Shown here: positions 14,179-15,172 of the stretch, piece by piece
Layout of the letters: each line of letters begins with the position of its first letter
Position numbering within the stretch: position 1 is the stretch's first letter
Source: Bacillota bacterium
Lineage (GTDB): Bacteria; Bacillota; Clostridia; Christensenellales; CAG-138
Reading direction: 5' to 3'
DNA: 64,000 nt
NCBI GenBank assembly: GCA_023390655.1
Contig: JAEWCL010000001.1
Span: 23,766 to 87,765 of the forward strand
Made by a program: the position numbers and the translations under genes
Notes under the pieces: model-generated
What the model saw: the letters and a program-made list of their open reading frames with translations, nothing else
Databases searched by the model: none
What the model was told of the DNA's origin: nothing

Positions 14179-14685
14179 TCAACTTTTGTTTGCCCGCTTT
14201 CCGCGATGCGCTATGGCCCAGGCAACGCCTGCAAGCACCAAAACGAGTATGAGAATCCCCCAAACAAGAGTATCAGTCGCCGCCAACCCAGCACGAAGAG
14301 GCTTGAGCGTTGAAGAATCGAACCTTAACGTGTATTCGATCACATGCGGCTGGCTCATGGCGACCGTCTGCGCAGAAAAGGGGATGTCGGTATCGAGCGT
14401 TACTGGGATTTTGAAGGTGGAATTCCCTTCTTTTTGCGTGGGATAGTAGGTTTGACCGTTTACAAGCATGTACTCGTAATGCGGGCTTGACCATATAACC
14501 GTAGCCGTGGTAACGCCGTTTTGGATTGCCAGTTCGGCAGGAGAAGCGACACTGGCCCTGCCCGAGCCGCCGGAGAGCATCGCTTCAACCGTATATTGCC
14601 CATCGGCGAGCGGCCCGGCAGCCAATGCACAAAGGGGCGCTATCAGCATACAAAATACCAAAAGCAACAGGATTGGCTTTCTCAT
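14179..14685 (-). CDS. secreted beta-rich domain protein with C-terminal TM anchor (Shp/NEAT-like architecture), unknown function
   Basis: Signal peptide ...PLCALAAG, a domain starting LADGQYTVEA, then a C-terminal helix LVWGILILVLVLAGVAWAIA followed by HRGKRANKS. Paralogous to the next gene. Confidence 0.6.
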   Translation of the reverse strand: MRKPILLLLVFCMLIAPLCALAAGPLADGQYTVEAMLSGGSGRASVASPAELAIQNGVTTATVIWSSPHYEYMLVNGQTYYPTQKEGNSTFKIPVTLDTDIPFSAQTVAMSQPHVIEYTLRFDSSTLKPLRAGLAATDTLVWGILILVLVLAGVAWAIAHRGKRANKS

Positions 14686-14689
14686 AGGC

Positions 14690-15172
14690 TTATTTCAGCT
14701 TGATGGCGTCGGCGGGAATCAGCGCGGATTGAAACACGAGTACGCGGTCGTACCATGATTCCTTCTTGATGCTCCACGCGGCGCAGTCGATGTTTTTATC
14801 AAGTGCCTCCACGGGTACCTCAAAGGTAACTTCATCCTCTGCGTTGATGACGGACGGGATGGTATGCGCCTCTGTATCGGCAAGTGCCTGTTCACCCGTT
14901 CCCATGTACAGCTTGCCATAGCCTTTTCCGCTCATGGTGATCACGCAGGTCATGGTCCCCTCTTTTACGTTAAGCTGTGCGTCCACCACGCGGAACATCG
15001 AAGAGCTTGCAGAAACTTCGATGGCATAGGTGCCTTCTGCAATCTGGCTCGCGTAGATGGGCGTAAGCTCCGGTGTGGGGGTGGGCGTTGGCTCTGCGGG
15101 CTGCGCGGCGCAGGCGCAAAGGAGGGATATTGCCAGGATGAGCATCGTCGATGCAAGGAGTGCTTTTTTCAT
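14690..15172 (-). CDS. lipoprotein with Pro/Thr linker and a paralogous beta-rich domain, unknown function
   Basis: Lipobox-like SLLCAC, linker PAEPTPTPTPELTP, and a domain starting IAEGTYAIEV that aligns by hand to the 168-aa neighbour (TFEVPV vs TFKIPV). Confidence 0.6.
   Translation of the reverse strand: MKKALLASTMLILAISLLCACAAQPAEPTPTPTPELTPIYASQIAEGTYAIEVSASSSMFRVVDAQLNVKEGTMTCVITMSGKGYGKLYMGTGEQALADTEAHTIPSVINAEDEVTFEVPVEALDKNIDCAAWSIKKESWYDRVLVFQSALIPADAIKLK

Follow-up and report, generated by a model that had tools for sequence, protein, structure and literature searches.

How Gram-positive gut bacteria capture compounds of the B12 family outside the cell is an acknowledged gap, and a 2026 review of the Bacteroides relay describes extracellular capture in Gram-positive Firmicutes as 'entirely uncharacterized' (PMC13616437). 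A locus that touches this gap lies in a 64-kb stretch of a Bacillota genome (contig JAEWCL010000001.1, positions 23,766 to 87,765; the whole stretch analysed is hereafter called the window). Two small genes, here named A and B, stand there between a gene encoding an exported CbiK-type cobaltochelatase and the genes for the substrate-binding protein (SBP), permease and ATPase of an ATP-binding cassette (ABC) importer. This six-gene cassette, which is large and unannotated, follows a cobalamin riboswitch, and the question is what A and B do in such a setting. Structure prediction and profile comparison identify both, with high confidence, as diverged members of the NEAT fold superfamily, and we consider it probable that the cassette relays a cobalt tetrapyrrole of the B12 pathway.

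The predicted NEAT fold of proteins A and B

AlphaFold2 models of A and B had overall predicted local distance difference test (pLDDT) scores of 83.6 and 87.9, rising to 93–97 and 96–98 in the respective cores, and in both models the chain is predicted to form the eight-stranded immunoglobulin-like beta-sandwich characteristic of NEAT domains. A Foldseek search of the PDB with the A model returned NEAT domains at all of ranks 1–43, headed by IsdX1 (3sik_A; E=6e-5, template-modelling (TM) score 0.70, root-mean-square deviation 2.6, 121 columns). With the B model, ranks 1–28 were NEAT domains plus Shp (2q7a, rank 4), and IsdX1 (3sik_B/3sz6_A) gave TM scores of 0.63–0.65; these scores are normalized to the target and compare predicted models, not solved structures. 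Comparison of sequence profiles pointed the same way. Using reference sequences of IsdX1, IsdX2-N5 and Hbp2-N2 rebuilt from PDB alignments, hhalign matched family A over its full length with a probability of 90.8% (E=1.2e-6) and family B with 82.8%, and a profile search of PDB sequences with A ranked the anthrax hemophore IsdX1 first (E=0.19). NEAT is also the Pfam family most often matched by members of the two families, at E ≤ 0.01 in 11 of 114 A-family sequences and in 8 of 14 Lachnospiraceae A domains; the homolog P0244 scores above the cut-off at 55 bits, and precomputed PF05031 matches exist for many Lachnospiraceae members. Taken together, the Foldseek, hhalign and Pfam evidence argues that A and B are diverged members of the NEAT superfamily. 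An earlier note on this DNA, made from the letters alone, had suggested such a fold from motif spacing; the structure check did not refute it, and neither Pfam nor NCBIfam holds an unrelated characterized family that claims A or B.

The same note had aligned the two mature domains by hand, and this alignment proved to be real. Both open reading frames were found where it had placed them on the minus strand, with 4 nt between the stop codon of B and the start codon of A and 5 nt between A and the next gene. A single BLASTP comparison of A with B gave 25% identity over 138 columns (E=6e-6), and comparing the family profiles (built from 114 and 116 sequences, respectively) with hhalign gave a probability of 98.9% (E=1.7e-17, 131 columns). 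The blocks picked out by hand (the DG.Y start, 'l.v.nG', 'TF.vPV' and the terminal 'Y..L.F.S') are aligned, conserved columns. On these sequence comparisons we regard A and B as paralogs; their homologs number 481 and 400 clusters at 90% identity, respectively. The JGI names of some B homologs ('FMN-binding domain', 'major membrane immunogen') were rejected, there being no match to FMN_bind or a related Pfam family.

Conservation in both proteins is highest in the lip and the beta7-beta8 hairpin, the elements that form the ligand pocket in NEAT domains. Invariant residues of the A domain include G39, G40, G42, A44 and P49 in a shortened lip, as well as Y70, Y80, M110, H114 and Y118, and those of the B domain include M59, F60, W133, S134, W140, Y141, D142, R143 and F147. 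The lip of A, an invariant G39-G40-S-G42-R-A44 ... P49 loop, is six residues shorter than that of IsdX1, and no helix corresponding to the SxxxxY 3-10 helix is predicted at that place in the A model. Strand beta8 of A reads A109-M110-S-x-P-H114-x-x-x-Y118-T-L-x-F, in which the YxxxY motif of heme-binding NEAT domains is replaced by HxxxY (P-H114-V-I-E-Y118 in the window copy). Across 216 more diverse domains the position of H114 (192 non-gap) is occupied by His in 165 and by Tyr in 8, and these Tyr variants recreate YxxxY, for example 'PYEISYTLRF' in P0311. In B the lip is S-S-S-S-M59-F60 and beta8 reads S-W140-Y141-D142-R143. Invariant Met residues are M110 in A and M59 in B; a bis-Met ligation of the Shp kind would depend on their placement relative to the pocket, which is readable only with model coordinates.

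The two proteins of the window are tethered differently. In B the lipobox Cys21 is near-invariant among 116 homologs and the stalk AQPAEPTPTPTPELTP follows directly after the lipobox region; such low-complexity stalks are longer in B homologs than in the window copy. The Shp-like anchor proposed for A, a C-terminal transmembrane helix with a KRANKS tail, is visible in the sequence, and no LPXTG motif was seen on inspection of it. A possible hidden sortase-type motif ahead of the helix ('TLKPL..G') was rejected because homologs without a transmembrane helix end in the same strand. A transmembrane helix and basic tail like those of A occur in 62 of 120 A homologs, about half having no such helix, and B and A are fused into a single lipoprotein in 53 of the 82 loci surveyed below. 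The contrast in anchors drawn in the earlier note therefore stands for the window pair but not as a trait of the family, in which separate, differently anchored proteins are the minority form. The annotation of a 1.06-Mb NCBI contig gives protein A a length of 156 aa (P0392), presumably counted from Met13, which lies inside the signal peptide (window 14650-14685, minus strand); public annotation may therefore hide its export signal.

A conserved cassette under cobalamin control

Relatives of the cassette were found at at least 587 places in a scan of species-representative genomes, and the protein family comprises 1,663 representatives at 50% clustering and at least 5,737 clusters at 90% identity. 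Carriers are mostly Clostridia, namely Oscillospiraceae (including Faecalibacterium and Gemmiger), Lachnospiraceae (including Blautia and Butyrivibrio) and Christensenellaceae, together with Eggerthellaceae and Bulleidia outside that class, and include some of the most abundant Firmicutes of the human gut and the rumen. Synteny and riboswitches were surveyed in 82 non-redundant loci, nearly all of which kept the order CbiK, B, A, SBP, permease, ATPase: CbiK accompanied B and A in 80 loci, the exact order of six hits was found in 46, and most others showed the same order with extra hits or were cut by contig ends. Typical cassettes also stood on contigs labelled Prevotella, Gaiellales and Flexilinea (L024, L012 and L055), which points to mis-binned Clostridia contigs or horizontal transfer. 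In L063 (4388-4578, minus strand), L042, L044 and L046 the permease and ATPase genes, or a second copy of them, are divergent and lie upstream of CbiK; the short contig of L063 shows no permease and ATPase other than this divergent pair, for which a separate cobalamin riboswitch is present on the opposite strand.

A same-strand riboswitch upstream of the cassette was detected by Rfam in 9 of 10 diverse loci, and a hidden Markov model (HMM) built from these matches found one in 70 of the 82 loci. Rechecking added L076 (from survey hits) and L041 (from Rfam), giving 72 of 77 evaluable loci once five negatives cut by contig ends were excluded. Corrinoid synthesis (cob) genes were located within 7 kb of the cassette in 44 loci and were absent from that distance in 38. 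Corrin-ring genes adjoined it in 34 loci, and in 11 there were late genes only (for example CbiP, CobT, CobU and CobS). Where ring genes are present the cassette often heads the operon, in a position usually taken by a cytoplasmic cbiK and a cobalt transporter; in Faecalibacterium (L003) the order is riboswitch, a CbiK-B fusion, A, SBP, permease, ATPase, CbiA, CbiC, CbiD and onwards.

Fusions of neighbouring genes were frequent and were informative about partners. Besides the 53 B+A fusions, the 82 loci held CbiK+B (7), CbiK+B+A (2), B+CbiK (2), A+SBP (4) and B+A+SBP (1), and multi-domain representatives reach the architecture A-B-B-B-A-B-A-SBP in 1605 aa. Among cluster representatives, each of the 29 SBP fusion architectures placed A next to the SBP, as did 5 further loci, and the domain adjacent to CbiK was B in all 12 CbiK fusions. 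These natural fusions make a strong genomic case for physical cooperation among the four extracellular parts, and our confidence in their joint function is high; the architectures suggest the order CbiK, B, A, SBP. The earlier note had proposed a distance-graded hand-off to the SBP. Such Rosetta-stone fusions lend indirect support to a hand-off, whereas a grading of distance by different anchors could apply in a minority of genomes only.

The features of the window are listed below.

Features of the cassette region of the window
Feature	Position	Strand	Remarks
Promoter-like site (TTGACA, 18 nt, TG-TATGCT), head of operon	16506..16535	-	Consensus match only; directly upstream of aptamer
Cobalamin riboswitch aptamer RF00174	16310..16496	-	57.4 bits against gathering score 31.5; E=1.3e-11; full-length model match
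Terminator-like hairpin (10 pairs) with T-run	16197..16219	-	75 nt before CbiK start codon
CbiK-type cobaltochelatase lipoprotein	15256..16122	-	Signal peptide and LAGC lipobox; Pfam CbiK 299.7 bits
Protein B gene	14690-15172	-	160 aa; lipoprotein
Protein B signal peptide and lipobox (Cys21; L-C-A-C21)	15110..15172	-	Sequence; homolog alignment
Protein B Pro/Thr-rich stalk AAQPAEPTPTPTPELTP	15059..15109	-	Sequence; model pLDDT 53-57
Protein B predicted NEAT-fold domain (B type), ~120 residues	14693..15058	-	Model, alignment, hhalign
Protein A gene	14179-14685	-	168 aa; signal peptide, C-terminal transmembrane helix and basic tail
Protein A cleavable signal peptide (cleavage between CALA and AG)	14617..14685	-	Sequence; model helix 3-23
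Protein A predicted NEAT-fold domain (A type), ~105 residues	14296..14616	-	Model, alignment, hhalign
Protein A C-terminal transmembrane helix (~residues 140-159) and basic cytoplasmic tail HRGKRANKS	14182..14268	-	Sequence; model helix 136-166
Substrate-binding lipoprotein (Peripla_BP_2)	13025..14173	-	Lipobox FTAGC; Pfam 113 bits
FecCD/BtuC-type permease	11975..13000	-	Pfam FecCD 270 bits
ABC ATPase with C-terminal extension of ~120 aa	10863..11990	-	Pfam ABC_tran

The operon reads, on the minus strand, promoter-like site, riboswitch, hairpin, CbiK, B, A, SBP, FecCD permease and ABC ATPase, and the riboswitch probably uses the hairpin as its expression platform. A second B12 riboswitch of another class, AdoCbl-II (RF01689; 16590-16668, plus strand, 37.3 bits), adjoins the RF00174 element back to back; it has its own promoter-like site and terminator-like hairpin (16559-16751, plus strand) and heads the operon beginning with cbiD. 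One intergenic region of 630 nt therefore carries two riboswitch classes controlling two divergent operons. The cob cluster (16755-30658, plus strand) comprises CbiD, CbiF, CbiG, CbiH, CbiJ, CbiET, CbiA, CobT, CobU, CobS, CobC, CbiB, CobD, CbiP and CbiC. No second chelatase (cytoplasmic CbiK or CbiX) was found in this cluster or in the rest of the 64 kb, the exported lipoprotein being the only one, and CbiL, CobA/CysG and a cobalt transporter were not found among the gene calls made, which did not extend to every open reading frame. Elsewhere in the window, an Na+ riboswitch (RF03071; 51731-51782, minus strand, 54.6 bits) lies directly upstream of an Rnf operon (47951-51551, minus strand) with genes for RnfC, RnfD, an FMN_bind subunit and an Rnf-Nqr membrane subunit.

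The CbiK of the window combines a CbiK domain, a predicted export signal and a His/Glu/His metal site. Its best match in the PDB was CbiK (1qgo, 2e-56), followed by two known exported CbiKs, FetB of Porphyromonas gingivalis (9b86, 1.7e-47) and the periplasmic CbiK of Desulfovibrio vulgaris (2xvx, 5e-41). The residues equivalent to the cobalt-site triad H145/E175/H207 are kept in the window protein and in 83 of 83 CbiKs of the cassette. Of 81 such proteins, 59 scored positive for a lipobox-like signal, and most others have a signal peptide as judged from the N-terminus. In genome-based prediction of B12 producers such an exported CbiK is likely to be counted as a biosynthetic chelatase. Two variants of the protein were seen. 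CbiKs of the Blautia/Gemmiger type contain an extra conserved module of ~75 aa between the signal and linker and the chelatase domain (L047:5005-5460, L064:4971-5430, L076, L055 and others), with the motif ...LIDxIYVQE..TD.DC.AAKEAWDALTDAQKELVEGE.A.PDYFG.DTGDA..DDP.N.DEIGENE and no match in Pfam; in two loci (L013:4623-6374 and L026:4262-6373) a tandem pair of CbiK domains in one exported protein heads the cassette.

The importer combines Peripla_BP_2, FecCD and ABC_tran proteins with a cobalamin riboswitch in one operon, as do BtuFCD importers. The best NCBIfam model for the permease was BtuC (198 bits against a cut-off of 334), and the ATPase matched the NCBIfam model 'corrinoid ABC transporter ATPase' (194 bits against 537) in an alignment running through residue 343. 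This model shares the C-terminal extension of the ATPase, a domain of ~120 aa (10863-11240, minus strand) that is conserved in the cassette; Pfam gave no match for the window copy, and homologs match PF27219 ('MJ0874').

The cargo of the putative relay

Based on these data, A, B, the exported CbiK lipoprotein and the SBP lipoprotein probably form a membrane-tethered extracellular relay supplying an ABC importer of type II (BtuCD/FecCD-like). The riboswitch would be expected to switch off the whole operon in response to adenosylcobalamin. Such control argues for a device of B12 acquisition and against a heme system. The cargo would be a cobalt tetrapyrrole, most likely one with free axial positions (a cobinamide- or cobyrinate-type corrinoid, or a cobalt isobacteriochlorin), held in a pocket equivalent to the heme pocket of NEAT domains, probably by the invariant His, Tyr and Met residues, with M110, H114 and Y118 of A and M59 and Y141 of B as candidate ligands. 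It would pass from CbiK to B, A and the SBP by transient contacts between domains, as heme does along IsdB/H, IsdA, IsdC and IsdE. Ligand binding, the nature of the cargo and the direction of transfer are what we infer here.

Several observations weigh against this assignment. The Pfam NEAT model (PF05031) matches A and B below threshold (14.1 bits, E=0.067, and 12.4 bits, E=0.22, respectively; gathering score 32.8). Pfam and NCBIfam hold nothing above threshold for either protein, hence no direct family assignment; NCBIfam returned no match at all for A and only negligible sub-threshold ones for B. The canonical heme motifs YxxxY and SxxxxY are absent from both window proteins. The register of beta8 relative to NEAT domains is ambiguous by two residues, the Tyr pair of IsdX1 aligning with Q112 and I116 by hhalign or with H114 and Y118 by motif logic, so that H114 is not to be equated with the axial Tyr with certainty; in either register the pocket-facing side of the strand holds H114 and Y118. 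All importer matches to Btu models fall below the curated cut-offs, and the SBP is closest to an IsdE-like SBP of a heme locus, not to BtuF. Its PDB relatives are remote whether a single sequence or a profile of 26 sequences is used; the nearest is Lmo2184 (5joq, profile E=8e-8) from the Hbp2 NEAT locus of Listeria, the B12-binding protein 5ysc matching with E=0.54 only, and NCBIfam gives a weak match to IsdE. The balance of these matches leans towards an IsdE-like SBP. The pocket of NEAT domains is porphyrin-sized, which puts the fit of a complete cobamide in question, and five evaluable loci are without a detectable riboswitch.

Within the reading of the cassette as a relay for cobalt tetrapyrroles, two versions have to be weighed. 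The first, to which we give a substantial chance that falls somewhat short of even, is plain salvage of corrinoids (cobamides, cobinamide), in which the exported CbiK would be a binding module only, its His residues ligating the corrin cobalt. Riboswitch-controlled importers of the BtuFCD kind are the standard route for corrinoids, and the permease and ATPase most resemble BtuC and the corrinoid ATPase. The cassette also occurs away from ring genes, in the 38 loci with no cob gene nearby and the 11 with late genes only, and its carriers include Blautia, a genus that contains a verified producer and is absent from the published table of precursor salvagers; cobinamide, moreover, is abundant in stool (PMC6461909). 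What this version leaves unexplained is the full catalytic triad kept by every one of the 83 exported chelatases, the IsdE-like SBP and the enrichment of carriers among predicted precorrin-2 auxotrophs.

These features are accommodated by a second version, salvage of precursors, which we rate as only slightly less likely than the first. Here the surface CbiK would load a captured metal-free tetrapyrrole (sirohydrochlorin, precorrin-2 or a related isobacteriochlorin) with cobalt, and the NEAT-like domains would pass the product to the SBP for import and entry into the pathway at CbiL, supplying tetrapyrrole and cobalt in one step. The intact metal site fits such a role, and class II chelatases require no ATP. 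Insertion of Co and Mn into porphyrins has been shown for FetB, the CbiK found at the surface of P. gingivalis (PMC13065792). In 34 loci corrin-ring genes lie next to the cassette, which often heads the operon, the gene calls made in the window include no other chelatase, CbiL, CobA or cobalt transporter, and a NEAT pocket and an IsdE-like SBP suit a ligand of porphyrin size.

Further support comes from the taxa. Among ~11,000 genomes, Shelton et al. list 64 'precorrin-2' salvagers in Supplementary Table 10, which are without HemA/L/B/C/D and CobA and keep the rest of the pathway (PMC6461909). Four carriers could be matched, and three of them belong to this class: Lachnospiraceae MA2020 is the exact genome of L079, Gemmiger formicilis the species of L064 and Faecalibacterium prausnitzii represents the genus of L003, L039 and L070, whereas Butyrivibrio FCS014 (L060) is in the data set and not in the precorrin-2 table. 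The table also lists Clostridiales R-7, Subdoligranulum, Senegalemassilia, Collinsella and a dozen Lachnospiraceae (PMC6461909). This overlap favours precursor salvage but is only suggestive, because it involves few taxa and two of the three matches reach only the level of species or genus. Precursor salvage is also opposed by the lack of any documented extracellular pool of sirohydrochlorin or precorrin-2, the latter being labile to oxygen, and by carriers that are likely complete producers (Blautia) or have late genes only beside the cassette.

A genuine heme relay of the Isd or Shp type is improbable. It would agree with the NEAT fold, with the resemblance of the SBP to IsdE and Lmo2184 and with the binding of heme by the relatives CbiKP and FetB, and JGI names one Lachnospiraceae member of the family (P0415) a 'heme-binding NEAT domain protein'. 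Automatic labels of this kind on family members are a trap for annotation and probably misleading in view of the B12 riboswitch context. Heme is an unlikely cargo because 72 of 77 evaluable loci have the riboswitch upstream and 44 of 82 are linked to cob genes; the heme motifs, as noted, are missing, the hosts are strict anaerobes, several without tetrapyrrole synthesis, and the operon contains no heme-degrading enzyme. The earlier note had left the choice between corrinoid and heme open, and it is this context that tips it away from heme. Least probable of all is that CbiK captures free cobalt ions for the importer, or that there is no ligand and A and B are spacers or assembly factors, since, although the operon occupies the expected place of a cobalt transporter and the metal site of CbiK is conserved, importers of the Peripla_BP_2/FecCD type carry organic metal chelates and not free ions, conservation in A and B peaks at the elements of the NEAT ligand pocket, and a spacer role would hardly account for the repeats of A and B domains in fusions with SBPs.

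In a literature search that covered few subscription journals, no paper linking NEAT domains to B12 was found, nor a description of an exported CbiK in a riboswitch-controlled Gram-positive importer. What is new is the setting: a very widespread family with the NEAT fold has been drawn, along with an exported cobalt chelatase, into the B12 regulon of gut Firmicutes. The idea of a NEAT- or Shp-like relay put forward in the earlier note is supported as far as computation goes. If the assignment of the cargo is right, the NEAT fold would serve the cobalt branch of the tetrapyrroles in addition to heme. How precorrin-2 auxotrophs such as Faecalibacterium feed an otherwise complete corrin pathway is an open question (PMC6461909), and no transporter for tetrapyrrole precursors is known in the literature. 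The cassette might, though we hold this with limited confidence, be the missing uptake route of such salvagers, with cobalt inserted outside the cell, and might in the same tentative way answer the puzzle of P. gingivalis-type organisms that have a corrin pathway without synthesis of precorrin-2. The committed step of anaerobic B12 synthesis, insertion of cobalt, would then occur outside the cell, and the 'cbiK' counted as biosynthetic in many Firmicute genomes would be a surface enzyme. Residues for tests of binding and transfer can be named: H114, Y118 and M110 in A, M59 and Y141 in B, and the triad of CbiK.

Comparison with known systems

As a type II importer under a cobalamin riboswitch, with a BtuC-like permease and an ATPase resembling the archaeal corrinoid ATPase with its C-terminal extension, the cassette can be compared with BtuFCD. 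It differs from BtuFCD in an SBP that is not BtuF-like, in matches below the curated cut-offs and in three extra extracellular components. Extracellular components are also present in the Bacteroides surface relay for cobamides (BtuJ, BtuH, BtuG, BtuB and BtuFCD), in which riboswitch-controlled surface lipoproteins take up the ligand outside the cell and pass it inwards to BtuFCD and components may be fused (BtuGH). That relay, unlike the cassette, is an outer-membrane system built from beta-propeller and jellyroll DUF4465 folds and has no chelatase. No Pfam match to a BtuG propeller or DUF4465 was found in the cassette proteins, the Foldseek matches of A and B being NEAT domains, and the likeness to the surface binders BtuG, BtuH and BtuJ is functional only.

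Counterparts of the chelatase are the exported CbiKs FetB/IhtB (9b86) and D. vulgaris CbiK (2xvx), which have the CbiK fold, an intact metal site and a lipid anchor or periplasmic location, as here. Their genes each lie beside an ABC importer, and we know of no NEAT-like partner of either. Unlike the CbiK of the cassette they come from Gram-negative bacteria, and heme is the context in which they are discussed.

A parallel to protein A is Shp, which acts with HtsABC (SiaABC) in Streptococcus pyogenes and whose NEAT-like fold likewise escapes the Pfam NEAT model. Shp is anchored by a C-terminal transmembrane helix with a charged tail and has no LPXTG motif; A, encoded beside an importer SBP, has the same architecture, as do 62 of 120 A homologs only. 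Shp hands its cargo directly to the SBP of the adjacent ABC importer, and the same is proposed for A. In contrast to the cassette, with its two types of paralog, chelatase partner and regulation by B12, Shp is a single, iron-regulated protein that binds heme through two Met residues.

The heme relays built from NEAT domains (IsdH/B, IsdA, IsdC and IsdE/F of Staphylococcus aureus, IsdX1/X2 of Bacillus anthracis, and Hbp2 with Lmo2184 of Listeria) share with A and B the predicted fold, the use of several paralogous, tethered extracellular domains in single- or multi-domain proteins, and the neighbourhood of a Peripla_BP_2 lipoprotein and a FecCD-type importer. The cassette departs from Isd-type systems in being placed under a B12 riboswitch and not under iron and Fur, in its linkage to cob genes and in anchoring by lipid (B) or a transmembrane helix (A) instead of by sortase (LPXTG/NPQTN). 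It departs from the heme relays further in the HxxxY of A and WYDR of B, in a shorter glycine- or serine-rich lip without SxxxxY, and in having an exported chelatase as partner and domains fused directly to the SBP.

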